Source: an uncultured Candidatus Saccharibacteria bacterium (lineage in GTDB: Bacteria > Patescibacteriota > UBA1384 > CAILIB01). Taken from it: 64,000 bases of DNA. The first letter of the stretch is position 1; the number at the start of each line of letters is the position of its first letter. Below are positions 1-39,098 of this stretch, piece by piece. The position numbers and the translations under genes were made by a program. The stretch is from NCBI GenBank assembly GCA_964593885.1, contig CAZQKK010000001.1, forward strand, positions 297,929 through 361,928, in the 5' to 3' direction. Below the pieces are notes generated by a model. The model had not been told where the DNA came from. It worked only from the letters and a program-made list of their open reading frames with translations, and made no database searches.

Positions 1-3000
1 ATTTCACCTGGGATGCCGATCCTTCGCTCAAGCAACGGGTCTCAATGCTTGAGAATACCCTCAATAAGCAGCTCAACGATCACAGTTTTGACCTGGCTGA
101 TATCCTTAGCCAGAACCTCCCTGCCAACCAGCTTGATACCATCCTCCTCAACAGGCTGAACCTCCTCACCGTAAGACCGGTAACCAAGAAGAGTAGTGCC
201 AACATCACCAAGTTTGAGCAGCAGTACAACGATCCAGCCTACAATGGCTGGCTCTTCCTCATCCAAGACTTGAGGCAGCGCCTCGATTGTAAGCTCACTA
301 ATGGTTACTACAGGGTTAAAGACGATAAGAAAGGAATGGAGTGCGCCCCTCGCCCTGGAGCTATTGAGGTACCTGAGGACGCGAAGTACGAAATCCAGGA
401 AGCAAAGCGCATCCTGGATAAGCTCTTTAAGCAACCTTGGGCACTGGTACAGAGCATCGTGAAGAGCCTCGAAACACGCACGTACAACGATCCAAGTGGT
501 TTTGTGAACCAGAGCGCTATGTCAGCCTCCATTGCCCTCTCCAGCGTGAAGTTTGCGGTTGATGAGAACCTGAGGTTCAAGCCTGAGACCATCTACAGCA
601 CCGATCTCGTACGTAGTCTCGTTGCTCCAAACGGGAAGGGGGTAGTACCACACAGCGCCTCAGTTGAAGCTTTCTTCAAACCTGACAGTAGCGGCAAGAG
701 CCTCTTGATGCGCTCAGGTATTGAGTACGCAGCCAAGAAGTTCAGTAACGACGCCCTTGGACAAGCAACCTTTGCGGCTCAGCTCAAGACAGACTTCGCC
801 GAAGTGGTAAGGATTAAAGATGATGTCGTAGACCTCTTTGATCTCGCTGAGAAAGACGCTGATGAGTACGGCTTTGACTATGAGAGCCTCGTAGAGAAGG
901 GGCTAGCCAACGATGACTTCATCAGGATCTTCCTCTTAGACCAGGCAAATGGGGTATTTGAACGTGTTGGTAAAGAGCAAGCACTCAGGGTTATTTGGCG
1001 AAAGAGCGGTGCAGCCGCCAAGATAAAGTCTTCTGAGCAGTACCAGAGCATCCTCAGGATTGCTCGTGAGAGCGTTAAGCAGCTTGAGTTCTATAAGAGT
1101 AGGCTCGATAGAATAAAAAGTCTCTCAGATGACCTGAGTGATAGAGTTGAGAGCCTCGGTGGTGACTTGTCACTCTTTGGTAGGCAGCTCAAGAAGGTGA
1201 ATGCATCAACGGATGTTGCCAACCTAGACAGCATCGAGCAGGTGCGGAAGCTCTCCAAGCGGTACGAGCCTACCCTCACCGCGATGACCAAGACGTTGAA
1301 GAGTGCGAACAGCAACGTACGTGATATCGCCCAGATTACCTACGAGATTCTCCACCTCACCCAGGAAATTGTTGCCGGAAGAGCGTTGCCACGTGATGAG
1401 AAGTTTGACACCAGCTACGTTTCGCTCAACCGCGCTCTGGAAGCAGGGGATCCTAGTAGGGCTAAAGACGGTTGCTTTGATAAAGCCACCTTACTCAGGT
1501 CACTCACAGGTTCAGGTGACCTTGGTCAGCGAATGTTTGACTTTGCAGTTGAGACCGGAACCTGCAGACTTGAGACGGGCCTTGGGCTTCCCAAGCAGTC
1601 AATCTTCCTCTGGTACAAGCTTGGCAGCCAAGAGTTTCCACCTACCAGGACTACAACGGTAACCTACCCTGAGGTAGTAGACGTAGAGACCGGCCTCCCA
1701 CTCACCGAGGCAACCTTCACCGTTGAAGAAACCTCCATCATGCCTCCGGCTGATACCAACCTGTTTGAGAAGCAACCTGACGGCAAGCTCAAGCCACTGG
1801 TTCCCACCTGGAACAAGAATCGTTGGTCAGCGGATAACCTGAAGCTTGCGGTGGGTATTGCCGATCAGATCCAGCGTAACCGTGACACCATCGATCCGGC
1901 TCAAGTTAGCCAATGGGCAGGACAACAAACGGCAGCCACTATTAACGACCTCATTAAAAAGGGGGAGCGGGTTCTTGCCGCCACGGCACTCTCAAAACTT
2001 GCCCAGATGATTCCGGGAGTTGGTAAGTTCCTCAAGCAGTACCAGATCACTGATAAGGAGTTGGTAGCCATCTTCCAGGGTAACTTCCAACCCCTCATTG
2101 CCAAGGTAGGTGGTGGATTCATTGACCAGGCCTTCAATCTACCTGCTGGAAGTGGAGCAGATCTCATCTACCCAGAGTGTAGCACCAACGATGGGAGGCG
2201 AGCCCCCTGTAACAAAGACCCAAACAATCCTCAGACAGATCCGGATAACGTAAGAATTAGGATTATTGCCGAAATTGGTCTCCAGAAGCTTGGTCTCACC
2301 ATGCCAAAGATTCCTCGCTACTTCAGCTTTAAATCTGGAGGTAACCTTGCTGAAAACTGGGGGAATGCCGCGGTGAGCGAGTACCTGAGAATCTCTCCAA
2401 ATAGCTTTAGGGGCAAGATGGTTGGAAGTAGCTACCAAGACACTCCTCTCGTTGATGAGTGTGAACAGCACGGCATACGGTGCATGAACACCTCAGGAAA
2501 CCTTGCCCGTGCATTTGGTTTTTCTTCTACCCCAACTGCCCGCAGCTTGGAGCGAATTAGGAGCGAGATTATGTACCAGTCTGATAAGCTCCTGACCACT
2601 GATGGCTACAGTATTGCGGATAATGCTTCGTTCTACCTCCAGAAAGCCTTGGAAGACTACTATGCCGCCGCAACCTTAGGTAGAGCTAGCAACGTTGAAG
2701 ATATCACCAACAAGAGGGGTTACTGGACCGATCTCAGTGCGCCGAGTGCCGCTGACAACGCGAGGCTTCTAGCAAATGCAGACGCCGACCCACAGGGTCC
2801 TTACCAAGCTGCCCTTGAAACAATCTGGGATTCGTTTGATGGTGGTATTTTCACCGCAGAGGTAAAATCTGCAATCCGGGCAATCATCCTCAGAAATCTT
2901 CCTGACAACATTGGCCCAGGGAGGGATGCTATCAATACCCTTCTCACCCCAGAGTACATTGATGGACTAGCTAGCGTTGAAGATTTCCCACTCTCTCTCA

Positions 3001-5807: not shown

Positions 5808-7328
5808 ATGTCCACATCACTCGACGCAACCCTCAAGCGGATCAACCGCCAAACCGAAGAACAGGCCGCTGAACAGCTTGCTGCAAATATCGGCCTCTCG
5901 TATGCCAAACTTGACGACTACCCTTTCGGCCTTGAGGCACTGGGGATGCTGCCCCTTGAGATCATCCAAGAGAAACTCTACGCACCCTACGTGAGATCAG
6001 CCTCCAAGGTCCGCTTTGCCATCGTCCACCCTGAAAACCAGCTTGTACTAGATGAGGTTAGCCTCCTAGGCCGCGAGTGGGAGCTTGAAGTTGAGCTCAC
6101 GGTAGTTTCAGCCTCAAGTTTTGAGTACCTGATTGCCAGCTACACGAAGCTCCTCCAAGAAGAGGCACAGGCCAGGCAGGCTGAATTAGAGGCAGCCCGC
6201 CAACGTGCCGACCATGACTACTTCAACAAGATAAAGAGCCTTGATGACCTGCGGAACGAAATGAATCGTGCCAGTGTCACCGATATCATTGAGGCAATCA
6301 TTGCCGCAGCCTACAACCAGGGAGCTTCAGACATCCACCTAGAACCAGGGGAGACCAGCGTACAGGTGAGGTTTAGGATTGATGGAGTGCTCCAGAAAGT
6401 TATTGAACTCCCGTTACGTCACCACCACCAGATCATCTCTCGTATCAAGATGATGGCTTCGGTTAAGCTCGATCAGAACAGTCAGAGCCAGGACGGAAGG
6501 TTCTCCATGGCAGATAAGGGGATTGAGGCAGACTTCCGTGTTTCTATCGTCCCAACCGGGTATGGGCCTGGGGTAGTTATGCGTATCTTGAAGCAGAGCA
6601 CCGAGGCACTCCACATTGAGAAGCTAGGCTTCAGTACCCACAACTTTGAGCTCATTCAGAAGAGTATTAAGCGGCCTTACGGTCTGATTCTCGTAACCGG
6701 TCCAACAGGCTCTGGAAAATCCACAACGCTCTACTCAATTCTTGCAGCCCTTAACACCTCAGAGAAAAAGATTCTCACCCTTGAGGATCCAATTGAGTAT
6801 CGTTTAGCTGGCATCCAACAGAGCCAGGTAGACCCTGAAAAGGGGTATGGGTTTGCTGAAGGGTTGAAGGGAGCGCTCCGGCAAGACCCAGACATCGTAA
6901 TGGTAGGAGAGATTAGGGATCCAGAAACTGCCACAATCGCTCTCAATGCGTCTCTTACTGGTCACTTGGTACTTTCTACCCTCCACACCAACGACGCCGT
7001 TACTGCCCACACACGCTTCTTGGAGCTTGGGGTTGCACCTTTCCTACTCAGTGGGAGTATCCAGGCAATTATCGCCCAAAGGCTCGTTCGTAAACTTGTC
7101 CCAGGAAGCGACCCTGCAAACCCAGAGTACAAGGGGCGAATTATTATCTCAGAAGTCCTCTGCCCAAACCAGCAGTTTGAACAAGCGGTACTCCAAAAGG
7201 TAGACCAGGAAAGCTTACGTAGCCTGGCAGTTGCTGGGGGGATGGTTCCCATGGTTCAAGACGGCCTCGAGAAGGTCAAGCAGGGCCTCACCACCGAGCA
7301 AGAGGTCTACCGCGTTACGGCAGAGTAA
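5808..7328 (+). CDS. pilB: Type IV pilus / type II secretion assembly ATPase (GspE/PilB family)
   Basis: Walker A LILVTGPTGSGKSTT, Walker B/Asp box DPDIVMVGEIRD, His box LVLSTLHTNDA, T2SSE_N-like N-terminus. Confidence 0.85.
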   Translation: MSTSLDATLKRINRQTEEQAAEQLAANIGLSYAKLDDYPFGLEALGMLPLEIIQEKLYAPYVRSASKVRFAIVHPENQLVLDEVSLLGREWELEVELTVVSASSFEYLIASYTKLLQEEAQARQAELEAARQRADHDYFNKIKSLDDLRNEMNRASVTDIIEAIIAAAYNQGASDIHLEPGETSVQVRFRIDGVLQKVIELPLRHHHQIISRIKMMASVKLDQNSQSQDGRFSMADKGIEADFRVSIVPTGYGPGVVMRILKQSTEALHIEKLGFSTHNFELIQKSIKRPYGLILVTGPTGSGKSTTLYSILAALNTSEKKILTLEDPIEYRLAGIQQSQVDPEKGYGFAEGLKGALRQDPDIVMVGEIRDPETATIALNASLTGHLVLSTLHTNDAVTAHTRFLELGVAPFLLSGSIQAIIAQRLVRKLVPGSDPANPEYKGRIIISEVLCPNQQFEQAVLQKVDQESLRSLAVAGGMVPMVQDGLEKVKQGLTTEQEVYRVTAE

Positions 7329-18264: not shown

Positions 18265-20313
18265 CTACCTTTCACCTGAAAACTCAGATGCAATAGCGCT
18301 GGTTTTGGCATCACTAGGCTCTGCAAAGAGCTTTTGACCTGGGGCCAAAGGTTCATTAAAGATTCCGCGAAGAATTTCTTCGGCTACAGGCACTGATGAC
18401 CAGTAGCTCTCTCCTCCACCCTCAACGAGAATGGCGTAGACGTACTCAGGGTTTTCGTAGGGGGCAAATCCAGTAAACCAGGCATGGGTGAGGCCCTGGT
18501 TTCCAAACTGGGCGGTTCCCGTTTTGCCAGCAGAAGTTACCTTGAGGTTCCTGAGGGGTTGAGCAGAACCAGAGAGTACCGCCTGTCGCATGCCCTCTCT
18601 TACTGTTCTCAGGTTATCGGCACTAATAATTCCCTTACGGGCAGCTTTTGGCTCCAGGGGTGTCTCGGAGAGATCCTCAGGGTTAATGAAAGATTTTACA
18701 ATTCTTGGTTCCCAAACGGTGCCACCATTTGCCACTGCTGCGGTACCAACAGCCATCTGGAGTGGGGTGGTAAGGAGGTACCCCTGACCAATAGAGCTCT
18801 GGTAGGTGTTACCGATGTACCACCTTTCATTAAACTGCTTCTGCTTCCAAGCATCATCAGGAAGGAGGCCAGGCATTTCTCCAGGAAGATCGATGCCTGT
18901 AGGTTTTCCAAGTCCAAAACTGGCAAGGTAGGCATTGAGCCTGTCTACCCCAAGTCCGGGGAGGTTCTTTTCTTCCCAACCACCACCAACAATGTAGAAG
19001 AAGACGTTGTTTGATTCAGCAATTGCTTTACGAGTATTTGTGAGTCCGTGGTACTTCCAGTCTGGGAACCTAAACTGCCCAATGGTAATGGCGGCGGGGG
19101 TGGTAAGGGTGGTGTCAGCAGTAATCACCCCAGCTTCTAGTCCTGCCGATGCCACGAGAGGCTTGAGGGTTGATCCTGGACTAAACTGACCCTGGATAGC
19201 GCGGTTGAGGAGGGGGTTGGCTGGGTCTGAGGTAAGCGCAGCGTAGCTATCCTTTGAAATTCCCTGTGAGAAGAGGTTGGTACTGTAGTCTGGGATGGAA
19301 ACCATTGCGCGAATAGCGCCGTCCCTAGGATCCATTACCACAACCGAGGCTCCAAGCTTTGGCAGTGGTCCGTACTTCTGGGTTCGCCTCACTAGCTCAT
19401 TCTTGAGTGCTGTAGCAACAATATCCTGTATTCGACTATCAATGTTGAGCTTGAGGGTCTTTCCTACCTCAGTCTTGCTGTTCTCAGAGCTAGAGATGAA
19501 CCTGACGATTTTACCTGAAGCATTTACCTCGGCGTGAATTTTTCCTGGGTTGCCGGTGAGCTCGTTGTTGTAGGTTTTTTCAATTCCAGTTTTACCAACC
19601 CTTTGGTTGAAGGCGAGTCCGTTCTGAACATCTTTTTCTGATACCGCACCAACGTACCCCATGAGGTGGGCGAGCGAGGGAAGTTCGGCGTAGCGGCGTA
19701 TGGGAAGTTCGGTGAATACTACACCTGGAGTATCGGTGAACCACTCTTGGTAGAGGAGGTTTTCTTCTTTAGTAAGACTTGTCTTTAGGGCGTAGAGTTC
19801 TGGGCTCTTGAGGTAGTTTGCCTCCAAGAAGGCAACATCCTCATCTTCAATGGCGTTATGGGCTTTGAGCTTCTCATATACTGCCTTACGCTCCTCTTCT
19901 TTACGGGGGAGGGTTTGAGGGTTGATGGCAATGCCAACACGTCTGTCGTTCTGGGCGAGAACCTTCCCGTTAAGGTCAACAATGAGACCTCTATCAGGTT
20001 GTTCGGTGAGAATTCTGACGCTATTTCCCTCAGCAGCAGCCCTGTTCTGCGAAGCACTGGTAATTTGGAGTTTGAAACACTGTAATCCAATAACCCCAAC
20101 AATAATGATGAGGAATGCATGGAAAGGGACGAAGTTACGCTTTGCGGGTACCTCATCTTCTATGCCAATGCCCTCAAGTTCGTCAGGGAATTCACTGAAG
20201 CCAGGATTGGTTGTCTCGAGGCTGTTTGAGACGTGGCGATTGTCGTTTGGGTTACCGAAGAGGTCACGGTCGCTCATGGTGGGTGGTGTATGTTGCGGTG
20301 TGCCAAATGGCAA
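18265..20313 (-). CDS. mrdA: Penicillin-binding protein 2 (class B transpeptidase, elongasome)
   Basis: SxxK SPGSTLKP, SxN ESNNVFF, KTG AGKTGTAQF; single N-terminal TM; follows mreBCD. Confidence 0.8.
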   Translation of the reverse strand: MPFGTPQHTPPTMSDRDLFGNPNDNRHVSNSLETTNPGFSEFPDELEGIGIEDEVPAKRNFVPFHAFLIIIVGVIGLQCFKLQITSASQNRAAAEGNSVRILTEQPDRGLIVDLNGKVLAQNDRRVGIAINPQTLPRKEEERKAVYEKLKAHNAIEDEDVAFLEANYLKSPELYALKTSLTKEENLLYQEWFTDTPGVVFTELPIRRYAELPSLAHLMGYVGAVSEKDVQNGLAFNQRVGKTGIEKTYNNELTGNPGKIHAEVNASGKIVRFISSSENSKTEVGKTLKLNIDSRIQDIVATALKNELVRRTQKYGPLPKLGASVVVMDPRDGAIRAMVSIPDYSTNLFSQGISKDSYAALTSDPANPLLNRAIQGQFSPGSTLKPLVASAGLEAGVITADTTLTTPAAITIGQFRFPDWKYHGLTNTRKAIAESNNVFFYIVGGGWEEKNLPGLGVDRLNAYLASFGLGKPTGIDLPGEMPGLLPDDAWKQKQFNERWYIGNTYQSSIGQGYLLTTPLQMAVGTAAVANGGTVWEPRIVKSFINPEDLSETPLEPKAARKGIISADNLRTVREGMRQAVLSGSAQPLRNLKVTSAGKTGTAQFGNQGLTHAWFTGFAPYENPEYVYAILVEGGGESYWSSVPVAEEILRGIFNEPLAPGQKLFAEPSDAKTSAIASEFSGER

Positions 20314-20719
20314 AAATCACACAGAAGATTGGGTAGGTAATGAGGAGGTAAACCTGACGTTTCCAGAAGCCGCTCGTACCAAAGAATAGGATATTGTACG
20401 TGGTAATAAGGACGAGCAGGGATAGCATAAACCTGTTAAGTGGAGCTGTAAAGCTCATCTTCTGCCTAAAAAGCGCGTAGGTAGTCAGTACCGCTGCTGC
20501 CAAAAGGGTTGCAGTGCCAGGGTGCTGACTTCCAAATACCTCTAGGGAAATGGTGAACCCAATAATAACTGGAAAAATAGGCACCTGCCGCTTTGAGAAG
20601 GTGGTGAGAAAGAGGAAGGCCCCCATGATGAGGGGGATGAGGTAGAAACTGAATTCACCAACAGCAGCGAGGAGGAGCAAACCAAGTATCGCCGATAGAA
20701 AGGCTATCAGTACTACCAT
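20264..20719 (-). CDS. mreD: Rod shape-determining protein MreD (polytopic membrane protein)
   Basis: Highly hydrophobic 151 aa between mreC and pbp2. Confidence 0.5.
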   Translation of the reverse strand: MVVLIAFLSAILGLLLLAAVGEFSFYLIPLIMGAFLFLTTFSKRQVPIFPVIIGFTISLEVFGSQHPGTATLLAAAVLTTYALFRQKMSFTAPLNRFMLSLLVLITTYNILFFGTSGFWKRQVYLLITYPIFCVIFAIWHTATYTTHHERP

Positions 20720-21519
20720 TAGGGCTGAACGGGAATGAGAAGGACGAGAACGTCCTCAATGCTGCCAGGATCTACGCCGAGGTTGAGCCTAAAACTCTGT
20801 TTAAGGTCGCTTGGGACAGAGAGAGAAGAAGAGATGCTCCCAATGGAGATCCCCCTCGGTAGGGAACCGGTAACACCCCCTGATAGGCCGCTGGTTTCAA
20901 CAAGCGAGTTTGGTTCAATCGCTACGCCCTGGTCAATTTCTCGCAGTGAAGCGGTATTTCCATCGCCAACAAGTATGCCAAGTTGCTGGTTTCCGGGTAG
21001 CCAAGCCTGAATGATAGATTTTGGCGAAACAACAGACCTCACAATGGAGCTGTCTTTCCTGACGGTAGTAACCCTCCCAACCAGGTAGCCCTGGTGTACC
21101 ACTGGTTGGCCTACAGCTATGCCCTGATTGCTACCAGCATCGATGGTAAAGCTCCTGTCGAGGGGGTCAGAACCCTGGAGCACAATCCTGGCAAACACCT
21201 TTTCAGTTTCCTTCACAACTCCGGTAACCCCGAGCTCCTTCCTGAGTGAAGCATTTTCCTGCTCGATATTTTCAAGTCTCGCTACTTCCTGTTGGAGTTT
21301 CAGTACCTCAGTCTGGAGAGCACTTCGGTCTGATCTGAGGGAACCAACCTGCGAGATGTTTTCAAAAAAACCACCAACTCCAAGGCGCTGCCGGTTAACG
21401 AAGCTTGTTACAGGAGATGTTGCCGAGATGACGCTGTTACGGACATCCTCAACAAGGGTAATTGGAAGGATTATGAGGAGTAAACCGATGACGGTGAGAG
21501 GAAGAATGCGCTTGAGCAT
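20719..21519 (-). CDS. mreC: Rod shape-determining protein MreC (start taken at MLKRILPLTV; track start 21606 overlaps mreB)
   Basis: N-terminal TM, coiled coil (LQTEVLKLQQEVARLENIEQENASLRKEL), beta-rich C-terminal domain. Confidence 0.7.
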   Translation of the reverse strand: MLKRILPLTVIGLLLIILPITLVEDVRNSVISATSPVTSFVNRQRLGVGGFFENISQVGSLRSDRSALQTEVLKLQQEVARLENIEQENASLRKELGVTGVVKETEKVFARIVLQGSDPLDRSFTIDAGSNQGIAVGQPVVHQGYLVGRVTTVRKDSSIVRSVVSPKSIIQAWLPGNQQLGILVGDGNTASLREIDQGVAIEPNSLVETSGLSGGVTGSLPRGISIGSISSSLSVPSDLKQSFRLNLGVDPGSIEDVLVLLIPVQP

Positions 21520-21524
21520 GTTCC

Positions 21525-22577
21525 TTAACGGTAAATGGTAGGGAGGAGGACTTCTTGGAGGTGGTCGAGGTTCTCGAGTACCTGTCCAGTACCACGCGCA
21601 ACGCAACTGAGGGGATCCTCAGCAATGTGAACGGGCATCCTGGTGGCATCGCGCAGTAAGAGGTCAAGACCGCGCAAGAGTGCGCCTCCACCTGCAAGCA
21701 CAATGCCTCTGTCCATAATGTCAGCGATGAGCTCTGGGGGTGTTTCCTCTACGGTGAGCTTTACGGCATCGACAATTTGGTTGACTGACTTGCTGAGGGC
21801 TTTCCTAATCTCTTCTTCAGTGACGATGATTTCTTTAGGAAGTCCTGAGACCAAATCTCTCCCACGCATTGGGCAGGTGAGCTTGTTTGCGGTAGGGTAG
21901 GCGCTACCTAGTGTAATCTTGATTTGCTCGGCAGTTCTTTCACCCAGGAGGAGGTTGTGGGTTTCCCTGGCGTAGGTAATGATGTCCTCGTTAAGTTCGT
22001 CCCCAGCAATTCTGAGGGAGCGAGAGGTAACAATGCCTCCAAGCGAGATAACGGCTACTTCGGTGGTACCGCCACCAATGTCTACCACCATGCAACCTGA
22101 AGCTTCCTGAACAGGTAGGTTTGCACCAATTGCCGCCGCCATTGGTTCCTCAATGAGAAATACCTGGCGTGCACCGGCTGAGATAACCGCCTCTTCTACG
22201 GCGCGTCTCTCCACCTCGGTAACTCCGTAGGGGATACCAACTACCACCCGGGGTCTTGGCACCAGCGAGAAGCGGCTTTTGTGCACCTTCTCAATGAAGT
22301 ACTTGAGCATTGCCTCGGTAACCTCAAAGTCTGAGACCACTCCGTCAACGAGGGGTCTGATGGCAACAATGTGGCCAGGGGTTCTCCCAACCATCTTTTT
22401 TGCCTCATCACCAATAGCGAGAACCTGGCGGGTCTTCTTGTTAATAGCCACAACTGAAGGCTCATTAATCACCACACCTCGACCCTTAACGTATACGAGG
22501 GAATACGCAGTTCCCAGGTCTATGCCAATGTCTTGTGAAATTCGGCTGCTGAATCTATCGAGAAATCTGAGGCGCAT
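21525..22577 (-). CDS. mreB: Rod shape-determining actin homologue MreB
   Basis: DLGTAYSLVYVKGRGVVINEPSVVAI, GGGTTEVAVIS; ~350 aa. Confidence 0.9.
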   Translation of the reverse strand: MRLRFLDRFSSRISQDIGIDLGTAYSLVYVKGRGVVINEPSVVAINKKTRQVLAIGDEAKKMVGRTPGHIVAIRPLVDGVVSDFEVTEAMLKYFIEKVHKSRFSLVPRPRVVVGIPYGVTEVERRAVEEAVISAGARQVFLIEEPMAAAIGANLPVQEASGCMVVDIGGGTTEVAVISLGGIVTSRSLRIAGDELNEDIITYARETHNLLLGERTAEQIKITLGSAYPTANKLTCPMRGRDLVSGLPKEIIVTEEEIRKALSKSVNQIVDAVKLTVEETPPELIADIMDRGIVLAGGGALLRGLDLLLRDATRMPVHIAEDPLSCVARGTGQVLENLDHLQEVLLPTIYR

Positions 22578-22637: not shown

Positions 22638-23441
22638 CTAGCGAAGTTTTGCCTCGTGTTCAGCGAGGGTTTTGGAGAGGAGAAGCTTTCCGTCTCTATG
22701 GGCAAAGTAGAGGTAGTCGTGTTTGGCTGGATTCTGTGCCGCGGCAATACTCTTGAGACCAGGGTTGGCTATGGGGCCTGGGGGTAGACCTGCATTCAGG
22801 TAGGTGTTGTAGGGCGAATTAACCCCCTTGTAGTCAGCTCTGGTGATAATTCCCCAGTAGCTGAAGTTCCGTACCTGTTTTGCCTCCTGGGTGTCTTTTG
22901 CGTACTGCACGGTGGGGTCGGCTTCTAGCTTCATACCACGGTTGATCCGGTTGGTGTAGACCCCTGAAATGGTTTCCCTTTCAGTGTCGTCAGTTGCCTC
23001 CCTCTCAATAATTGAGGCGAGGATAATCTGGTCATCAGTAGGGGCAAGTTCACGGGTTCGCTTAGCAAAGGTGGTGGTAAGAGCCTTTACTACCTCTGTT
23101 GCGGGGGTGTTGGGGAAGAACCTGTAGGTATCAGGAAACAGCTTTCCTTCCTTCCCACTACTTGCTGCGAGGAAGGCATCAGCTGAGCAAATACCGGCAC
23201 TCTCCATGCTATTAGCAATTTCTTCGCGCCGCTTACCCTCAACAATGGTTACTGAGACATCCTCACGTTTCTGGTTTTTCACCAGCTCGTTACGAGCATT
23301 GAGTTGGTCTCGGAGGTATACAGCGCCCATGCCAATACCCGCCAAGAGGGCAGCGATAACCACCAGAGATGCTATGGTTTTTCTACTCATGGTGGATGCT
23401 CTCAAGGTAAGAGGTGAGGATGGTGCACGCAGCAGCGGCAT
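22638..23441 (-). CDS. mltG: Endolytic murein transglycosylase MltG (YceG family)
   Basis: N-terminal TM, conserved YAHRDGKLLLSKTLAEH and GLPPGPIANPG motifs. Confidence 0.8.
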   Translation of the reverse strand: MPLLRAPSSPLTLRASTMSRKTIASLVVIAALLAGIGMGAVYLRDQLNARNELVKNQKREDVSVTIVEGKRREEIANSMESAGICSADAFLAASSGKEGKLFPDTYRFFPNTPATEVVKALTTTFAKRTRELAPTDDQIILASIIEREATDDTERETISGVYTNRINRGMKLEADPTVQYAKDTQEAKQVRNFSYWGIITRADYKGVNSPYNTYLNAGLPPGPIANPGLKSIAAAQNPAKHDYLYFAHRDGKLLLSKTLAEHEAKLR

Positions 23442-23826
23442 CTCGGTCTAGGTGGGGGTAGAGAACCTTACCATCCTGTGTGGAAGCAAACTCGTTTACC
23501 CTCACAATAGAGAGATGGGGAAAAGCTGTGGCTAGTGCCTGTTCCAACTGTGTGGTAACGCGGGAAGACCTTTCGCTCTGACTTGTTTCGCCCCCATCAG
23601 CGGAAAGTGGCACTCCAATTACGAGAGTTGCGACACCGTGAGAGCTGATGAGTTGAGAAACGCTGGCCAGGAGGCCATGGATGTGGGGGAGTTCCCACGC
23701 AATAGTTTGGAGGGGCTGTACGTCCAGTCCATTTGGTGAGAGTGCTGCCCCAGTTCGCTTCAACCCGATATCAAGCCCCAGAAGGGGGCTACTCATAGCT
23801 TGTCTTGATGCTGATACTGCCAGCAA
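23383..23826 (-). CDS. ruvX: Putative pre-16S rRNA nuclease / Holliday junction resolvase-like YqgF (RuvX)
   Basis: LLGLDIGLKRTGAALS N-terminus (RNase H-like); classic yqgF-mltG adjacency. Confidence 0.8.
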   Translation of the reverse strand: MLAVSASRQAMSSPLLGLDIGLKRTGAALSPNGLDVQPLQTIAWELPHIHGLLASVSQLISSHGVATLVIGVPLSADGGETSQSERSSRVTTQLEQALATAFPHLSIVRVNEFASTQDGKVLYPHLDRDAAAACTILTSYLESIHHE

Positions 23827-25648
23827 AGCGAGGGAACTGTTTCAGCGGCCACCAGCTAGGTGATTGGGTGATGGTAACGCTGCTGGCGGGCGTAGCCTCA
23901 GTTACCAGTGCTTGCCCTGAGGTTAGGCTCTTTCCTACGAGCTCGGCCGGGAGGTTCTCAGTGCTGAATACGGGGGTAATTTTACCGCTAGCCTTTGCAG
24001 CAAGGGTAATGGTTTGGGTTTCAAACGAAACCGCAGTTACCGTATTGCTGCTGCTTTCAACGAGACGTTTCTCAGTGGTTGTCTCCTTGCTCTTGAAGTA
24101 ACTCTCTACAGCTTGGGTGAAGGAGGCTTTATCGATGATGATGCGCTCCAGAGAACCCTTACTGGTAGCCAGGAAAGATTCTCCTTCGGCGTTAGCCTCA
24201 AGTGAGGTGGTGAATGTTACAGCTCCTAGGAGGTCTGAGCCATCCTGGAAAATGGTCTCACGGTTTGCGGTTGCTTCGTTGAGCTTGGTAACAAGACTGT
24301 CACGGAGCTGTTTGGCGAGGGTGTTCTTGGCATTGGTAATGTCAGATGCAGAGACTACCTTGAGTTCCTGGCTAGTACCACCAGTGGTGCTGTCAATCTG
24401 GGCGTAGAGTATGGTAGATGGGCTGGTAATATTTGCGATAAGATTACTGACATTACTTTCGCTCCCTACATTCTCAGCGGTAATACTCACACTTGCAGAG
24501 CCAGGGGTTTGTTTCCCAGGTTTTATGATTACGCCAGGGACAGTGACCGCCACATTGGTAGTAAATGACCTCCCATTTGCTTCCAGTCGTGCTCCAGCTG
24601 GAAGACTGACAGGATCACTATCCTGACTGTTAAAGATGGTGGCTGTGCCTTTTGCTGTAACTCCAATTTTCTTTGTTCCAGTGCTCTGAAAACTGGCGCT
24701 TACCTCTCCGTCCTGTTTTATCCTTTCGGCAGGAACTATGGTGCCGTCACTTGAGACGCTGGTGCTGGTAACGTTACCAGCAATGGTGAAGTCTTGATCC
24801 CATGGCTTTGCTTGAACGGTGAGTACTACTGTGGTTTTTGGGAGGAAGAAGAAGCTACACAGCAGGGCGATGATGAGCACTATGCCACCAATAAGGTAGA
24901 AGGGGCGAAGTTTATTGGTACCACCAGCATCAACCTTTGAAACTACTGGTGTGACAACAGGTTTAGAAGCCTTTACTACTACCTTTTCCTCTGGTGGGGT
25001 AGGTGCTTGCGTAGCAGGAGTCTTCACTTCGCTTTCGAGATCTTCTGGTGAAACTTCTTCTATAGATGCTTCAGGTACTGTGGTGCGCTTGAGGGGTTCT
25101 GACGGAACCTGTGGTTTAGCAACTGGTTTAGGTACCGGTTGCGGGGTGATTTCTACTGCAGGAGCCGCAACTGGCGGGGCAACAGCAGGAGCCTCTTGGA
25201 GGAGGTTTTTCGGGACGATGGCGGTAGCAGAAGCTGCAGTGGTAACCGTTGCGGCGGGGAGGGCATCAGCGTCGCCATCGGCAGGTTCAGCATCGGGGCC
25301 GTCGTAGTAGCGGTGGATTCTTACCCCAGCAATAACCGAGGCGTTCTCTTCGTCGCCGGCATCTCCTTCGCCACGCGCAACCCTGGCCACGTCTTTTTCG
25401 CTACTTGCTACGTTGATACCAACCTGGGCAGCAAGGTTTCTGCCAATTTTGTCGGTGGTGACGAGGATGAGGTCTTTCTCAGCGTCGCCGGCCGCCTTCT
25501 TCGCGAGCTTGAGGTTGACGATACTCTGGGTGAGAACGGCTCCTTTTGGAACCACGAGGGCAACTATCGGTTCGTGGGAGGCTTTGAGCCTCTCGATAAC
25601 CGAGGTAATTTCGTCGCTACTGTCGATGTAGATTGTCTCAATACTCAT
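23789..25648 (-). CDS. Hypothetical bitopic membrane protein (619 aa): ~100-aa N-terminal cytoplasmic domain, Pro/Ala-rich linker, one TM (FYLIGGIVLIIALLCSFFFL), ~350-aa Ser/Thr-rich extracytoplasmic domain; translationally coupled to ftsA (ATGA overlap)
   Basis: Topology read from sequence; no FtsZ GGGTGSG motif; no family recognised. Confidence 0.55.
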   Translation of the reverse strand: MSIETIYIDSSDEITSVIERLKASHEPIVALVVPKGAVLTQSIVNLKLAKKAAGDAEKDLILVTTDKIGRNLAAQVGINVASSEKDVARVARGEGDAGDEENASVIAGVRIHRYYDGPDAEPADGDADALPAATVTTAASATAIVPKNLLQEAPAVAPPVAAPAVEITPQPVPKPVAKPQVPSEPLKRTTVPEASIEEVSPEDLESEVKTPATQAPTPPEEKVVVKASKPVVTPVVSKVDAGGTNKLRPFYLIGGIVLIIALLCSFFFLPKTTVVLTVQAKPWDQDFTIAGNVTSTSVSSDGTIVPAERIKQDGEVSASFQSTGTKKIGVTAKGTATIFNSQDSDPVSLPAGARLEANGRSFTTNVAVTVPGVIIKPGKQTPGSASVSITAENVGSESNVSNLIANITSPSTILYAQIDSTTGGTSQELKVVSASDITNAKNTLAKQLRDSLVTKLNEATANRETIFQDGSDLLGAVTFTTSLEANAEGESFLATSKGSLERIIIDKASFTQAVESYFKSKETTTEKRLVESSSNTVTAVSFETQTITLAAKASGKITPVFSTENLPAELVGKSLTSGQALVTEATPASSVTITQSPSWWPLKQFPRFAGSISIKTSYE

Positions 25649-26922
25649 GATCTGAGGCCCTTGAGGAGCTTGTTCATTGTCTTGGTTGCCACAGGTTGGT
25701 GTCCAACAAGGTCTAGGGCGATGTTAGCAAGCGCCATGGGGGTAACATCTTGGGCACCCTGGAGGCTACCAGTTTTGTCGATGATGTTACTGACCTGTTC
25801 TGGTTTAATGTACTGCACCTCTGGAGCTTTCGCAAACGGGAGGCTATTCCACCACTTCTTACTCTCGAGAGCTTCCTTGAGGTCTGGCAGGAGACTTCCT
25901 CCGCCACAGAGGTAGATACGGTTAGGGAGGAGGGGGTTATCTTGGAACCTCTCAGAGCTCGTGAACTCCTCCAGGGCAAGCTCTACTCCTGACAACCAAA
26001 CACTGGTATCGCTGGTAATGATTTTTGAGATTTTCTCACGCTCATCTTTCTTGAGGGTGTCGTTTGAGTAGGCGAGCTTCTGCTGCTCGGCTTCTCTGAA
26101 TGGTAGCTTGAGCTCGGAGGCAATTCGTTTGGTGAAAGCCCTCCCACCAAGGGCAAACATCTTGGTTCCCTCAAGTCCTCCAGATCGAACCACCGCAATA
26201 TCGGTAGTGCCTCCACCAACATCAATGAAAATAGAGGAGATGTCTCCGGATTCTTCAGTGCCAAAGCAGCGGGCTACTGCGTAGGGCTCGGTAGCTATGG
26301 TGAGGAGATCAAGGTTGAGACCGTCTGCGATACTCTCGAGAGCCCCTACGTGAACACTTGGGGCGTAGGCGGTGTAGATGTTTACCTCAACTGACCTACC
26401 CTTGAAGCCAACAGGGTTGGTGACCGCGTAGCCATCAACCTTAACGTGTACAACAGCTGAGTTTACCAGCTGTACATCTATTTCGTTGTACCCCGTTTCC
26501 CAAGCCAGCTCTTTCCTGGAACTCTGGAGGATTTGTCGCTGAGCCTCAGTAATGATGTCTCGCAGTTCTCCCTGGGTAATGGGGTGCGAAGGATTCTTGC
26601 GGGTGAGGGTGGTGCTGGTGGTGTTTCCCTTAACCAGCTCTCCGGCAATCCCGATGATGGCCTGGTCAGCCTCAATTTTTGCTTCGTTGAAAGCTCGCTC
26701 AACTGCCTTTGCTGCAGTGTCGATAACGCCACTAATGTCGGTGACAGCTCCGCCGTGGATATCTGAGAGTCGCTGTCTTTCACGGCCGTGCCCAATAACT
26801 ACCCCATGCTCCTCAATCACCTCGAAGACGAGAGCTTTGACAAACTCGGTTCCGATATCGAGAGAGAGGGCAACGGTGCGGCGGGGTTTAGTCAAGAAGC
26901 GCATAGGTGTAGTGTACCACAT
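25645..26922 (-). CDS. ftsA: Cell division protein FtsA (actin-like ATPase)
   Basis: LDIGTEFVKALVFE phosphate-1, IDVGGGTTDIAVV phosphate-2, 425 aa (PilM would be shorter). Confidence 0.75.
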   Translation of the reverse strand: MWYTTPMRFLTKPRRTVALSLDIGTEFVKALVFEVIEEHGVVIGHGRERQRLSDIHGGAVTDISGVIDTAAKAVERAFNEAKIEADQAIIGIAGELVKGNTTSTTLTRKNPSHPITQGELRDIITEAQRQILQSSRKELAWETGYNEIDVQLVNSAVVHVKVDGYAVTNPVGFKGRSVEVNIYTAYAPSVHVGALESIADGLNLDLLTIATEPYAVARCFGTEESGDISSIFIDVGGGTTDIAVVRSGGLEGTKMFALGGRAFTKRIASELKLPFREAEQQKLAYSNDTLKKDEREKISKIITSDTSVWLSGVELALEEFTSSERFQDNPLLPNRIYLCGGGSLLPDLKEALESKKWWNSLPFAKAPEVQYIKPEQVSNIIDKTGSLQGAQDVTPMALANIALDLVGHQPVATKTMNKLLKGLRS

Positions 26923-26938
26923 TTGGTATACTTACATC

Positions 26939-27751
26939 ATGATTGAGGGGACCTGGTACACACAGCCACTACTTGCAGCAATTGCGGGTGCCCTCGGGGG
27001 CGCTCTCCTTACCGGCATCCTCATGCAGGGGAGTCTCAAGCGTTTTTTTGAAAGGCGCCTCAAAGAGAGTAAAGACAAGTTCATTGCCCTCGCCTCGCAC
27101 TACCTCCTCACCCCAATTACCATCATTCAAACCGCCCTCAGTAGGCTGCAGGAGTCTGATTCGTCCCTCACCATGGAGCAGCGTCTCAAGCTCTACGATG
27201 CCATTGGGATGGGGCAGCAGCGCCTCTGGATTATCGCCGAGCAACTAGTGCTCATTAACGAGATCGATCAGAACAACCTGAAGCCAAGGATGGATGTGAC
27301 AGACTTTGCGGAGGTAGTAGGTGGGGCGGTTTCTTCCATGGACATCTTTGCCCGCAACAAGCAGGTATCGCTCATGTTTGAGAATGCCATCCACGAGCCG
27401 GTGCAGGGGAGAATGGACGCCAGGCGAATCAAGCAGGCAGTCATCGCTGTTCTTGATAACGCCATCAAGTTTAGTATGGAGGGCACCCAGGTTAGGGCTC
27501 AGATAAGCATTGAAGAGGGAGACTTCATCCTCAGGGTTAAAGATCAGGGAATTGGGATGCCAGAAGAGGTGCTCCAGCACACTGGCGAGAGGTTCTACCG
27601 AGGTTCAAGCATCTACGAGTTTGACTACGAAGGTTTGGGACTGGGACTCCATATCGCCCAGGCAATTGTGACGCTCCACGGAGGGACGGTGAGGTTTGAC
27701 TCGCAACCGCGACTCGGGACCATTGCCACCTTGAGGTTTCCTCAGACCTAG
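26939..27751 (+). CDS. Small sensor histidine kinase (one N-terminal TM, HisKA + HATPase_c); start taken at MIEGTWYT (track ORF 26552 is an upstream extension overlapping ftsA)
   Basis: H-box ALASHYLLTPITIIQ, N-box VLDNAIKFS, G-boxes DQGIGMPEE / GLGLGLHIAQ. Confidence 0.75.
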   Translation: MIEGTWYTQPLLAAIAGALGGALLTGILMQGSLKRFFERRLKESKDKFIALASHYLLTPITIIQTALSRLQESDSSLTMEQRLKLYDAIGMGQQRLWIIAEQLVLINEIDQNNLKPRMDVTDFAEVVGGAVSSMDIFARNKQVSLMFENAIHEPVQGRMDARRIKQAVIAVLDNAIKFSMEGTQVRAQISIEEGDFILRVKDQGIGMPEEVLQHTGERFYRGSSIYEFDYEGLGLGLHIAQAIVTLHGGTVRFDSQPRLGTIATLRFPQT

Positions 27752-27772: not shown

Positions 27773-29554
27773 ATGCAGTCCCAAGAAATTCGCAAGCGGT
27801 ACCTGAAGTTTTTTGCCGATCGTGGCCACACGGTCATTCCTTCAAGTTCGCTCATCCCTGAAAACGACCCCACGGTACTCTTTACCACAGCTGGCATGCA
27901 GCCCTTGGTTCCGTACCTCCTCGGCCAAATTCACCCAGGTGGCAGGAGGCTCACCAGCGTTCAGAAGTGTGTGAGAACGGGGGACATTGAGGAAGTTGGC
28001 GATAACCGCCACCTGACCTTCTTTGAGATGCTCGGCAACTGGTCACTTGGCGACTACTTCAAGAACGAGTCTATCCGCTGGAGCTTCGAGTTCCTCACCA
28101 GCAGCGAACATGGCCTTGGACTAGATCCAGCCAAGCTCTACGTCACCGTATTTGGGGGCGATAGTAACGCTCCAAAAGACGAAGAGTCCATTGGCATCTG
28201 GAAAGAGGTGTTTGCCTCAGTTGGGATTACCACTGGTGTAGATGTGCCACTTGCAGAGGGCGGGAGGATCTTCTCTCTGAGTGATAACTGGTGGGGGCCA
28301 GCCGGACAGTCTGGGCCATGCGGACCAGACACCGAGATTCACTACGATGTGGGTGGAGATGCGGTACTTACACTCCCAGACGGGATGCCAGATTTTGAGA
28401 GTGGGAGAATCATGGAAATCTGGAACAACGTTTTCATGCAGTACAACAAGAGTGTTACTGGAGAGTTCACCCCTCTCGAACAGAGCAACGTTGACACTGG
28501 TATGGGACTCGATAGAATCGCCCTCATCATGCAGGGTAAGACGGTACCATTTGAAACCGACCTCTTTACTAACCTCATCTTTGAGCTCCACGCCATCGCT
28601 CCAGACCTTACGGCTAATGAGAGCGCTACACGGGTGGTTGCTGACCACTTCAGGACAGCGGTGATGATGGTTGCAGATGGGGTAACTCCCTCAAACAAGG
28701 ATAGGGGCTACATCCTCAGGAGGCTCATAAGGCGGGCAACCCTCTACCTGGGACTACCTGGGACCGAATGGGTGGGATCGCTGGTTGCAGCGGTTGGGGG
28801 TATCTACAGAGAGCAGTACCCAGTAGTTGAGGAGCTCTACCCCGAGATTACAAAGTCAATTAGTGAAGAAGTCTCAAAGTTTCAGCGAACACTTGAAAAA
28901 GGAAAGCAGGAAATCGCAAAGCGCCAATCTCTCACCGGGAAAGACGCATTTGACCTCTACCAGAGCTACGGCTTCCCCCTAGAACTCACCAAGGAGTACG
29001 CAGCAAGTAAGGGAGTGACCTTTGACGAAAGAGAGTTTGAAACAGAGTTCCTCAAGCACCAAGAGCTCTCACGAACCGCATCTGCCGGACAGTTCTCATC
29101 AGGCCTCGCAGACCACTCAGAAGCCACTGTGGCGTACCATACGGCCACGCACCTCCTCCACCAGGCGCTCAGGAACATTCTCGGTCCTAGCGTCCAGCAG
29201 AAGGGGAGCAACATTACCCCCGAGAGACTGCGATTCGACTTTTCTTGGCCTGAGAAGATGACACCTGAACAAATTGCCGCCGTTGAAGCCGAGGTCAACG
29301 CCCAGATTGCAGCTGGCTTACCAGTATCTGTTGTAACCATGCATCCAGATGAAGCTCTCGCATCAGGAGCCATTGGGCTCTTTGGCCACAAGTATGGGGA
29401 CAGCGTTACCGTCTACAGCATGGGTGGTTACAGCAAAGAAATCTGTACCGGACCCCACGTTGAAAACACTAAGACACTCGGGAAATTCAGTATTTCAAAA
29501 GAGGAAGCGGTGAGCGCTGGAGTGAGGCGAATTAAGGCAGTGCTAACTCATTGA
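27773..29554 (+). CDS. alaS: Alanyl-tRNA synthetase, short form (catalytic + editing domains, lacks C-Ala domain)
   Basis: N-terminus MQSQEIRKRYLKFFADRGHTVIPSSSLIP...TTAGMQP; editing HxxxH (TATHLLHQAL) and CTGPH motifs; only 593 aa. Confidence 0.8.
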   Translation: MQSQEIRKRYLKFFADRGHTVIPSSSLIPENDPTVLFTTAGMQPLVPYLLGQIHPGGRRLTSVQKCVRTGDIEEVGDNRHLTFFEMLGNWSLGDYFKNESIRWSFEFLTSSEHGLGLDPAKLYVTVFGGDSNAPKDEESIGIWKEVFASVGITTGVDVPLAEGGRIFSLSDNWWGPAGQSGPCGPDTEIHYDVGGDAVLTLPDGMPDFESGRIMEIWNNVFMQYNKSVTGEFTPLEQSNVDTGMGLDRIALIMQGKTVPFETDLFTNLIFELHAIAPDLTANESATRVVADHFRTAVMMVADGVTPSNKDRGYILRRLIRRATLYLGLPGTEWVGSLVAAVGGIYREQYPVVEELYPEITKSISEEVSKFQRTLEKGKQEIAKRQSLTGKDAFDLYQSYGFPLELTKEYAASKGVTFDEREFETEFLKHQELSRTASAGQFSSGLADHSEATVAYHTATHLLHQALRNILGPSVQQKGSNITPERLRFDFSWPEKMTPEQIAAVEAEVNAQIAAGLPVSVVTMHPDEALASGAIGLFGHKYGDSVTVYSMGGYSKEICTGPHVENTKTLGKFSISKEEAVSAGVRRIKAVLTH

Positions 29555-38393: not shown

Positions 38394-39098
38394 TTACGCC
38401 AGCGGGGAGCTTGAGTTGAGGTCCTCAGGCGGGAGGCCTCCGCCATCTTGCTGGTTTCGGGCGAAGTCTGGGAGGTCAGCAGGTGGCACAGAGTAAGGTG
38501 CAGGGACTGCGGGAACTGCTGGAGCAACAGGGGCTGCGGCAGGCGCTGTGGAGGTAAGCGGGGCGCTACCAGGCATGGTTGGAACTGCTGGAGGCGTTGG
38601 CACTACAGGAGTGCTTGGGGCAGGAGGGAGTACTGGAGCTGGGCTTGCGAAAGGCACGGGTGAGGGAGCTTGGAATACCGGAGATGGTGCTGGAGCATCT
38701 TCTAAGACATCGTTGCCAGGAAAATCTGGGAGGTCTGGAAGCTGTGGGAGGGGGGTAACTTCTGGAGCCGCCGCCATTAGGGATGGTGCTGCAGGCACCT
38801 CAGGTGTGTCTGGTTGCTCGGGTGCAGGAGTGGGTTCTGGTGAAACTGGCTCTGGGAAAACAGGGGCATCGGCTTTAGGAGCTGCTGGAAGTACCTGTCT
38901 ACCAGTGAGTCCTTCAAGTTGCGCTACGGCAATGAGAGCCACTGCTGGCTGGTTGTTGCGGGTTACCACCACAATCTGGTCACTACCATCAACCTGGGCA
39001 ATTAGTTCGCCAATCTTAGCTGTAGCCTCAGATTCGCTCAAAATATTCTCTAGTTCGATGTGGAGCATTGGGGGCGAATTACCACTAGGTGTTCCCAA
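38394..39098 (-). CDS. Hypothetical protein: N-terminal Phd/YefM antitoxin-like domain fused to ~170-aa Pro/Ala-rich disordered tail
   Basis: IELENILSESEATAKIGELIAQVDGSDQIVVVTRNNQPAVALIAVAQLEGL resembles Phd/YefM fold; stop 3 nt before lctP start; opposite-strand ORF 38548..39129 is a low-complexity artefact. Confidence 0.45.
   Translation of the reverse strand: MGTPSGNSPPMLHIELENILSESEATAKIGELIAQVDGSDQIVVVTRNNQPAVALIAVAQLEGLTGRQVLPAAPKADAPVFPEPVSPEPTPAPEQPDTPEVPAAPSLMAAAPEVTPLPQLPDLPDFPGNDVLEDAPAPSPVFQAPSPVPFASPAPVLPPAPSTPVVPTPPAVPTMPGSAPLTSTAPAAAPVAPAVPAVPAPYSVPPADLPDFARNQQDGGGLPPEDLNSSSPLA

Follow-up and report, generated by a model that had tools for sequence, protein, structure and literature searches.

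A conserved gene pair encoding an FtsA-like actin-fold ATPase and a bitopic membrane partner in Patescibacteria, Chloroflexota and Dormiibacterota

The DNA examined here, called the window throughout, is a 64-kb stretch of an uncultured Candidatus Saccharibacteria bacterium (contig CAZQKK010000001.1, positions 297,929 to 361,928 of the forward strand). It contains a gene for a 425-residue actin-fold ATPase, followed on the same strand by a gene for a 619-residue bitopic membrane protein; these are referred to below as the FtsA-like protein and its partner. An initial annotation, made from the sequence, had described the first gene as ftsA, with a membrane protein in the position canonically held by ftsZ. 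The ftsA label is wrong: the 425-residue protein is a separate FtsA-like paralog, not the FtsA of the divisome. At the level of sequence and gene order, the two genes make up a separate orthogroup pair that is tightly linked and, judging from the junctions, often translationally coupled. We consider it probable, at roughly 60%, that their products form a conserved two-protein module, distinct from the FtsA–FtsZ system of the divisome, which acts on the cell envelope. On this reading the 425-residue protein represents a third lineage within the FtsA/PilM branch of the actin superfamily.

A very large part of the diversity of uncultivated bacteria is Patescibacterial, and the genes that are conserved and enriched in this lineage mostly lack a known function. 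The pair is among the most widespread conserved Patescibacterial genes of unassigned role, the partner alone being represented by approximately 7,900 clusters, and insertions in it carry a fitness cost in Southlakia epibionticum, the one genetically tractable species. Its members are routinely misnamed FtsA, PilM, "rod shape-determining protein" or "baseplate J"; recognition as a module in its own right guards against false conclusions on the division genes of reduced genomes ("ftsA without ftsZ"), provides the cytoskeleton field with a new FtsA-family system that is testable in Southlakia, and offers a possible gene-order marker linking Patescibacteria with Chloroflexota and Dormiibacterota. 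We found no paper in the literature that characterizes the pair. It is best described as a catalogued unknown, because its genes are already present in databases under generic or misleading names and are listed among enriched core families. Three points are new: the pair is recognized as a lineage of its own within the FtsA family that has an obligate partner, it occurs beyond the Patescibacteria, and the anatomy of the partner is described.

A separate FtsA-like lineage and its linked partner gene

A genome scan with an alignment of FtsA-like orthologs yielded two sharply separated sets of loci. The first (30 loci, 35–54% identity) derives from Patescibacteria (Howlett-, Sacchari-, Peri- and Dojkabacteria), Chloroflexota (Limnocylindrales and Chloroflexia), Dormiibacterota and the Firmicute Natroniella, and the second consists of 50 loci of other phyla at 21–31% identity. 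Neighboring genes were counted by local profile searches over all open reading frames (ORFs) of the scanned loci. A partner-family ORF lies downstream on the same strand (E 1e-19 to 1e-201) in all 29 evaluable FtsA-like loci, a non-redundant sample that includes the window and its closest relatives, L001–L003, and it follows immediately in 28 of them; the single departure, L031, has one inserted gene. FtsZ is found in none of 33 FtsA-like loci (within approximately 10 kb), and genes of the division and cell wall (dcw) cluster are never adjacent either. Directly after canonical ftsA, ftsZ is present in 44 of the 50 loci of the second set. In addition, 33 FtsA-like and partner cluster pairs agree in their contig-length fingerprint. 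These counts sustain one part of the earlier suggestion that a membrane partner is coupled to the actin-like gene as a candidate divisome or elongasome adaptor, namely the pairing itself; the link to the elongasome is weaker than first appears, the surrounding block being ancient (see below). In L031, from Candidatus Nanosyncoccus (2105-8029), the pair is separated by an opposite-strand ORF of 516 residues with weak kinase-like similarity.

Canonical Patescibacterial FtsAs were represented by a query consisting of the last 90 residues of Southlakia FtsA, taken from a published knockout construct. A homolog search with this tail returned only five short fragments. Among 55 canonical Patescibacterial loci from metagenomes, ftsZ is directly next in 45, and the contig ends first in the other 10. 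A neighbor-joining tree was built from 117 sequences: 30 FtsA-like proteins and 87 canonical FtsAs, of which 42 are Patescibacterial and 45 come from other phyla. The FtsA-like proteins and the canonical FtsAs are reciprocally monophyletic, and the Patescibacterial canonical FtsAs group with those of other phyla. Identities follow the same division: FtsA-like and canonical proteins share 20.7–22.7% (20.7% where the canonical FtsAs are Patescibacterial), whereas Patescibacterial canonical FtsAs share 32% with the canonical FtsAs of other phyla.

Profile and fold comparisons place the protein near FtsA without placing it among the FtsAs. Its AlphaFold2 (AF2) model (mean predicted local distance difference test score, pLDDT, 84.8; predicted TM score 0.82) contains the FtsA-type inserted subdomain 1C in place of 1B. 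Foldseek ranks FtsA structures first (E 1e-31; TM score by query, TMq, 0.64–0.74; by target, TMt, 0.72–0.83; approximately 395–425 aligned columns), PilM structures second (TMq 0.57–0.63), and MreB (TMq 0.44–0.49) and Hsp70 well behind. The protein shares conserved phosphate-1, phosphate-2 and adenosine motifs with the FtsA references considered (1E4G, 4A2A and 7Q6D/F/I; TM 0.73–0.83). Its nucleotide-binding motifs, DIGTE (residue 22), DVGGGTTD (234) and CGGGS (339), hardly vary among 46 orthologs. The Pfam FtsA family PF14450 is matched at 57.7 bits. Unlike members of the FtsA equivalog family TIGR01174, however, the protein scores 104.3 bits against a cutoff of 175.85, as do its orthologs in Natroniella (127.4 bits) and the Limnocylindrales (111.6 bits) at similarly low values; it has no match to SHS2_FTSA (PF02491) at E<=0.01, shares 21–23% identity with canonical FtsAs, branches outside their clade and is never encoded beside ftsZ or the dcw genes. 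Against the pilM family TIGR01175 it reaches 29.3 bits under a cutoff of 133, against PF11104 (PilM) a borderline 27.8 bits over the Pfam cutoff of 27, and against TIGR00904 (MreB) 26 bits for a cutoff of 365.75, which places it outside that family. An apparent 682-residue "fusion" of the FtsA-like protein (P0122) proved to be an upstream mis-extension rather than a domain fusion.

A flexible linker that runs into a predicted amphipathic helix at the C-terminus is a possible further likeness to FtsA. AF2 models this helix (Table 1) as detached from the core, at low pLDDT, after a variable linker of 6–8 residues; the helix sequence is conserved among orthologs and the linker preceding it is not. 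Its hydrophobic moment is 0.57–0.68, against 0.40 for the tail of the canonical Southlakia FtsA and 0.57 for that of E. coli FtsA. The helix is a candidate amphipathic membrane-targeting or partner-binding element, and protein binding could explain its conservation equally well as membrane targeting.

In Southlakia the two gene sets share a single genome, as can be read from its published transposon sequencing (Tn-seq) and annotation tables (Tables S1 and S2 of Wang et al., 2023; PMC10633639). There, canonical ftsA–ftsZ are SEML1_0174/0175, the FtsA with an SHS2_FTSA match, and a genuine type IV pilus PilM with its PilN-like neighbor is SEML1_0104/0105. A third string reads alaS (SEML1_0657), "PilM" (0656), "baseplate J/gp47" (0655), RuvX (0654) and MltG (0653) (PMC10633639). 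SEML1_0656, of 427 residues, is named "pilus assembly protein PilM" by Prokka, is assigned to KEGG ortholog K03590 (FtsA) and is described as "FtsA domain-containing"; SEML1_0655, of 556 residues, is parsed by ECOD into a SpoIIaa-like N-terminal domain, a beta-barrel, a G3P-like domain and gp6 C-terminal domain III (PMC10633639). Both are flagged as core, Patescibacteria-enriched families (Meheust et al., 2019, via PMC10633639). Gene order, gene sizes and the ECOD parse all resemble those of the Saccharibacterial loci analyzed here and of the window pair, to which SEML1_0655/0656 are most likely orthologous; the differences lie in the generic or misleading names and in the occurrence of the pair, found here, outside Patescibacteria as well. 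The canonical ftsA and ftsZ are both scored GD/ES/ES (with NE read as non-essential, GD as growth defect and ES as essential), SEML1_0656 is NE/NE/GD with normalized reads falling from 2427 to 660 to 221, and SEML1_0655 is NE/ES/ES, falling from 373 to 34 to 24 (PMC10633639). The main text of the same study makes no reference to FtsA, FtsZ, MreB, MltG or cell division (PMC10633639). By analogy, the canonical ftsA–ftsZ of the window's genome most likely lies elsewhere, as in Southlakia.

The position of the pair is also shared. Gene order was compared among relatives, as had been proposed for this locus: Patescibacteria, Chloroflexota, Dormiibacterota and one Halanaerobiales Firmicute all have the pair between alaS and ruvX–mltG, and in most loci alaS lies on the upstream side of the FtsA-like gene. 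Eight loci outside Patescibacteria have the pair in this slot (L008, L011, L012, L023, L024, L025, L028 and L033); in one of them, from Natroniella (L025:4670-17715), the flanks are the classic Firmicute alaS ... ruvX, DUF1292, mltG, O-methyltransferase, U32 and udk. Judging from these gene orders, alaS, ruvX and mltG are an ancient Terrabacterial synteny block that holds the pair, and the shared slot was either inherited from one Terrabacterial ancestor or spread by transfer of the block. Chloroflexota carry ftsA–ftsZ in or beside the dcw cluster (PMC10608941). In three Chloroflexia metagenome-assembled genomes from long-read "MFD" assemblies (L024, L028 and L033), the FtsA-like and partner genes are split into several ORFs, most likely through frameshift errors of assembly rather than as pseudogenes.

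Domain architecture of the partner protein

The partner had been described as a short N-terminal domain, a linker rich in proline and alanine, one transmembrane helix and a large outside domain rich in serine and threonine, and this layout is borne out by the AF2 model (overall pLDDT 82), by hydropathy and by charge. The helix is the sole strongly hydrophobic segment of the protein and is modeled by AF2 at residues 249–266. Across 190 family members, the 15 residues on the N-terminal side of the helix have a net charge of +4.3, compared with +0.4 on the C-terminal side; because this positive bias precedes the helix, the N-terminus is predicted to be cytoplasmic and the large domain to lie outside. 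No tubulin motif is present in the partner, as had been stated, and the pattern GGG[TSA]G[STA]G is absent from all six frames of the window.

The cytoplasmic domain has the predicted topology beta-alpha-beta-alpha-beta-alpha-beta-alpha and is the best conserved part of the protein: mean identity to the window partner is 59% in this domain, 33% in the ectodomain and approximately 20% in the linker and transmembrane helix. It is recognizable in homologs from Chloroflexota, Dormiibacterota, Natroniella and Saccharibacteria. Profile searches, which the initial annotation had suggested for both ends of the partner, and fold searches gave a divided answer. For the ectodomain they returned baseplate- and GlxA-like relatives; for the N-terminal domain, profile searches of PDB and Pfam returned no significant relative, the nearest being PIN_4 (E 0.004–0.1) and the PIN protein Nmd4 (E 0.14). 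The equivalent Southlakia domain is parsed by ECOD as SpoIIaa-like with a probability of 0.888 (Wang et al., PMC10633639).

The disordered linker that follows is acidic and 32% proline plus alanine, varies among homologs in length and sequence, and ends in a basic patch before the transmembrane helix. It contains one conserved exception, the short motif of residues 105–116 (Table 1), which, together with the N-terminal domain, is the best conserved part of the partner within the window subclade; in the alignment of that subclade, G108, H112, R113 and Y114 are near-invariant. Homologs from Saccharibacteria, Chloroflexota and Natroniella lack the core GV(K/R)IHRYY, which is found in the window subclade only. 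It looks like a lineage-specific short linear motif; the idea that HRYY is a universal actin-binding peptide was rejected on account of this confinement.

The ectodomain is 27% serine plus threonine and has a conserved motif, P.(W/F)W(P/V)...(F/V/I)P, at its end. Foldseek searches of PDB matched the GlxA beta-barrel domain (E 5e-7) and the baseplate wedge proteins 9euf_C, 8v3w, 8fqc and 9rku (E 5e-6 to 5e-4), and Baseplate J-like proteins are on top in BFVD (E 3e-7 to 1e-5); one further segment resembles the pilus-binding domain of the filamentous-phage protein G3P (4eo0, E 0.04). A profile search of PDB likewise recovered GlxA (E 3.5e-5). On the predicted structure, the ectodomain is an assembly of domains that resemble parts of the phage baseplate wedge (gpJ/gp47/gp6). 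Among 43 family members, 11 match PF21110 (GlxA beta-barrel) and 7 match PF04865 (Baseplate_J). The window partner itself shows gpJ/gp6-like domain folds and fails the PF04865 profile, having no Pfam match at E<=0.01 and no NCBIfam match. It thus shares its ectodomain folds with gpJ/gp47/gp6 proteins (PF04865) and the GlxA beta-barrel (PF21110; 4UNM), with weak but significant profile matches in a minority of the family, while differing from phage baseplate proteins in its transmembrane helix and cytoplasmic domain, its housekeeping operon and the absence of tail genes.

Other domain families can be set aside. The possibility that the partner is an FtsQ/DivIB-like protein or a PilN/PilO fusion, which had been held out as a way in which the reading might fail, found no support: POTRA/FtsQ, SPOR and PilN/PilO domains are absent from all 43 members (E<=0.01) and from the fold matches. 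Nor did RodZ or helix-turn-helix families of Pfam and NCBIfam match, even when the isolated N-terminal domain was searched at E<=10. Neither Pfam nor NCBIfam has a model dedicated to the partner family. The family comprises 77 close clusters, and 7,871 clusters at E<=1e-30 or 12,222 at E<=1e-10 in a profile search; its clusters (50% identity) are nearly all 520–680 residues long and match end to end, and the few homolog clusters with a named source are labeled "Patescibacteria group bacterium".

Possible roles of the pair in the cell envelope

If the pair is an envelope module, the actin-like ATPase would sit at the inner face of the membrane, held there by its C-terminal helix, by the cytoplasmic domain of the partner, or by both. 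It would engage the conserved cytoplasmic domain of the partner, whose transmembrane helix would couple the ATPase to a baseplate-like ectodomain acting in the envelope. Such coupling in the cytoplasm is suggested, indirectly, because conservation of the partner N-terminal domain (59%, against 33% for the ectodomain) parallels that of the FtsA-like protein (55–91%) and because the genes overlap by ATGA. Of the processes that the module might serve, growth of the cell wall or envelope and morphogenesis appear more plausible than anchoring of a Z-ring, and a role in the envelope or cell wall is our most economical guess.

The proposed logic resembles, by analogy, that of PilM–PilN, FtsA–FtsN and MreB–RodZ. 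PilM–PilN (TIGR01175, PF11104; 2YCH, 5EOU) shares with the pair an FtsA-family ATPase gene directly upstream of a bitopic partner with its N-terminus inside, and this cytoplasmic N-terminus would be what the ATPase binds. PilN, however, has a short peptide and a ferredoxin-like domain in place of a folded domain of 90 residues and a baseplate-like ectodomain of 350. In RodZ, a folded cytoplasmic domain, a proline-rich linker, one transmembrane helix and an outer beta domain follow each other as they do in the partner, and the window pair lies in a same-strand string with mltG and mreBCD–pbp2. The differences from MreB–RodZ are that the N-terminal domain of the partner is alpha/beta rather than helix-turn-helix, that it bears no sequence or Pfam relation to RodZ, that the actin-like protein is FtsA-like rather than MreB-like, and that mreB is adjacent in some lineages only.

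Several points weigh against an envelope module of this kind. Contact between the actin-like protein and its partner is proposed from indirect cues. The adjacency to ruvX–mltG is largely inherited synteny, the same block being present in Firmicutes, and adjacency to mreBCD–pbp2 is restricted to some lineages: these genes are adjacent in L001–L003, lie approximately 4 kb further off on P0065 contigs, and are represented by an mreB approximately 7 kb away in L026, while mreB was not found in the available downstream sequence (up to approximately 10 kb) of the other Saccharibacteria, Chloroflexota and Natroniella loci. Genomic context is therefore weighted lightly for an envelope role, since the alaS/ruvX/mltG block is old and the mre adjacency patchy. 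The depletion of insertions in SEML1_0655 could in part be a polar effect on the essential ruvX downstream, and the orthology of SEML1_0655/0656 is drawn from synteny, gene size and domain parse rather than from alignment. The co-occurrence of both gene sets in one genome comes from the Southlakia tables, the window being 64 kb of a 497-kb contig. Finally, the tree is a simple neighbor-joining tree without support values, which covers FtsA-like proteins and canonical FtsAs but no PilM.

A broader version of the envelope-module reading is possible, though tentative: the pair may represent a third ancient lineage of the FtsA/PilM family, wired to a domesticated baseplate-wedge-like protein as a transmembrane cytoskeletal module and descended from a common ancestor of Patescibacteria, Chloroflexota and Dormiibacterota. 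If so, the module might position wall remodeling during elongation or polar budding, and the pair would be a shared derived character of the three phyla.

It is also conceivable, if unlikely, that the 425-residue protein is a working or accessory FtsA which binds the C-terminal peptide of an FtsZ encoded elsewhere, with the partner as a lineage-specific divisome component comparable to FtsN, FtsQ or ZipA. FtsA is its closest solved structure (E 1e-31, TMt up to 0.83), the C-terminal amphipathic helix is as in FtsA, and KEGG places the Southlakia ortholog in K03590; the unusual polar budding of Saccharibacteria could, moreover, need extra division factors (PMC10633639). But a canonical FtsA beside FtsZ already exists in Patescibacteria and is essential in Southlakia, where the coexisting FtsA-like gene is much less so, its insertions being far better tolerated (NE/NE/GD) than those in ftsA or ftsZ (GD/ES/ES). 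The FtsA-like clade also lies outside all canonical FtsAs and is never found beside ftsZ or dcw genes in the 33 loci. The description of the window genes as ftsA with a membrane protein in the ftsZ slot fails as well, given a score of 104 bits under a cutoff of 175.85, a separate clade, ftsZ next to canonical ftsA in most loci, and a Southlakia genome that has both sets.

A quite improbable alternative is that the ectodomains oligomerize beyond the membrane and there form or organize an assembly of the envelope or surface, for instance a host-contact structure or an S-layer anchor, which the cytoplasmic actin-like filament would position. T4 gp6 and P2 gpJ are oligomerizing structural units in phages, and the ectodomain consists of gpJ/gp6-like domains. 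The family is also enriched in Patescibacteria, and most of the enriched essential genes of Southlakia are envelope-associated (PMC10633639). Against such an assembly, the fold matches are local (approximately 105–180 residues) with low overall TM scores, and the pair is carried by free-living Chloroflexota, Dormiibacterota and a Firmicute as well, so that it is not specific to an epibiotic lifestyle.

We give little credence to the suggestion, raised in the initial annotation as an alternative, that the actin-like gene is of the PilM type with a PilN-like partner. In that case a pilus, competence or secretion-type machine would use the pair as its inner-membrane platform, with the partner in the role of PilN or PilO. 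Type IV pili are central to Patescibacterial biology. The Prokka name of the Southlakia ortholog, the weak PilM profile matches (PF11104, TIGR01175), the second-best ranking of PilM structures and the ectodomain segment resembling the G3P pilus-binding domain (4eo0, E 0.04, and the ECOD parse) all point in this direction. Yet PilM here is an annotation label only: the score is 29 bits against 133, the fold is nearer FtsA, and Southlakia has its genuine PilM and PilN-like neighbor elsewhere (SEML1_0104/0105). No pilN/O/P/Q, pilin, ATPase or platform genes are adjacent in the 33 loci; the partner has a folded cytoplasmic domain of approximately 90 residues instead of the short PilN peptide, and no PilN/PilO match; and in Chloroflexota and Dormiibacterota the pair lies inside the same housekeeping block. 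That the partner is a remnant of a prophage, contractile-injection or defense system, incidentally adjacent to the actin-like gene, as "baseplate J/gp47 family protein" labels and PF04865 matches in 7 of 43 members might suggest, has almost no chance of being correct and is effectively refuted by synteny, the alaS–ruvX position being kept across phyla. The surroundings, housekeeping DNA by the replication origin, are free of tail, sheath, tube, spike and integrase genes and show no anomaly in guanine–cytosine (GC) content at 22–28 kb, and the partner is a membrane protein with a cytoplasmic domain, unlike virion baseplate proteins.

Arrangement of the locus and other features of the window

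The coordinates of the pair, its domains and its neighbors are given in Table 1.

Table 1. Features of the FtsA-like/partner locus, in window coordinates
Feature	Position	Strand	Basis
FtsA-like actin-fold ATPase gene, 425 aa	25645..26922	-	ORF list and profile/fold matches
C-terminal helix of FtsA-like protein, residues 411-424, ...TKTMNKLLKGLRS	25651..25692	-	AF2 model
ATGA stop/start overlap, TGA of FtsA-like gene with ATG of partner	25645..25648	-	read from sequence
Partner gene, 619-aa bitopic membrane protein	23789..25648	-	ORF list
Partner cytoplasmic alpha/beta domain, residues 1-92	25373..25648	-	pLDDT >92
Partner disordered cytoplasmic linker, residues 96-245	24914..25363	-	pLDDT mostly <50
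Partner motif (V/I)(I/V)xG(V/I)(K/R)(I/V)HRYY, residues 105-116	25301..25336	-	conservation
Partner single transmembrane helix, residues ~249-268	24845..24904	-	hydropathy (KD19) maximum 2.68 at residue 251
Partner extracytoplasmic beta-rich domain, residues 271-619	23792..24838	-	pLDDT >90
ruvX (YqgF), directly downstream of partner	23383..23826	-	PF03652 E 9e-17; same slot in relatives
mltG (YceG family endolytic transglycosylase)	22638..23441	-	PF02618 E 8e-62; TIGR00247 140.7 bits, cutoff 103.4
mreB	21525..22577	-	PF06723 493.6 bits
mreC	20719..21606	-	PF04085 98.6 bits
Putative mreD, 151-aa ORF in mreD position	20264..20719	-	position
pbp2/mrdA	18265..20313	-	TIGR03423 516.7 bits, cutoff 455
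Small histidine kinase, divergent	26939..27751	+	HATPase_c E 1.4e-24, weak HisKA match
alaS, short 593-aa form	27773..29554	+	NF002436 713.7 bits

The ATGA overlap reported between the upstream actin-like gene and the partner gene is present at the position listed, and it is consistent with translational coupling of the two; in relatives the junction is tight or has a gap of a few to approximately 35 nucleotides. The FtsA-like gene has an alternative start at M7 (26904), from which most homologs align, and may begin there rather than at 26922. The exact 425-residue sequence has no identical entry in the protein collection, probably because another start codon was called. Profile matches also uphold the same-strand run into ruvX–mltG and mreBCD–pbp2, where the genes from ruvX to pbp2 overlap or are separated by gaps of at most approximately 60 nucleotides. 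A promoter and terminator scan of 17.8–27.9 kb found fewer sites than in shuffled sequence and is for that reason uninformative on operon structure.

The divergent histidine kinase also neighbors the pair in the closest relatives, L001–L003. As listed, its ORF spans 26552..27751 (+), with the first 129 codons antisense to the FtsA-like gene; the true start is likely the in-frame ATG at 26939, which gives a protein of 271 residues with HisKA/HATPase domains and a hydrophobic N-terminus, and which lies only 16–34 bp from the divergent FtsA-like start. Matches to the kinase found by phmmer inside FtsA-like genes are artifacts of the over-extended ORF. In the window alaS is divergent from the pair, whereas it is co-directional in most other lineages; its product has 588–723 residues in the Patescibacterial loci and 856–940 in those of Chloroflexota, Dormiibacterota and Natroniella.

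Outside this locus the window consists of ordinary housekeeping DNA that surrounds the replication origin (yidC, dnaA, dnaN, recF, RNase J), with several aminoacyl-tRNA synthetases, secA, dnaE and a PilB-type ATPase among its further genes, and the GC content at 22–28 kb is unremarkable (0.516–0.532). Three other features were observed. An ORF of 1915 residues without a Pfam match (45..5792, +) lies directly upstream of the PilB-type T2SSE ATPase (5808..7328, +) and may encode a large surface or pilus-associated protein. At approximately 51.6–54.5 kb the GC content falls to 0.454, against approximately 0.52 around it, in a stretch that contains two ORFs without Pfam matches (51599..52246, +, and 52663..54477, -) and adjoins tRNA-Gln (52327..52401); this stretch may be acquired DNA. 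Beside a gene for L-lactate permease, a 234-residue ORF (38394..39098, -) has an N-terminal domain resembling the Phd/YefM antitoxins, at 26.5 bits under a cutoff of 29.8.

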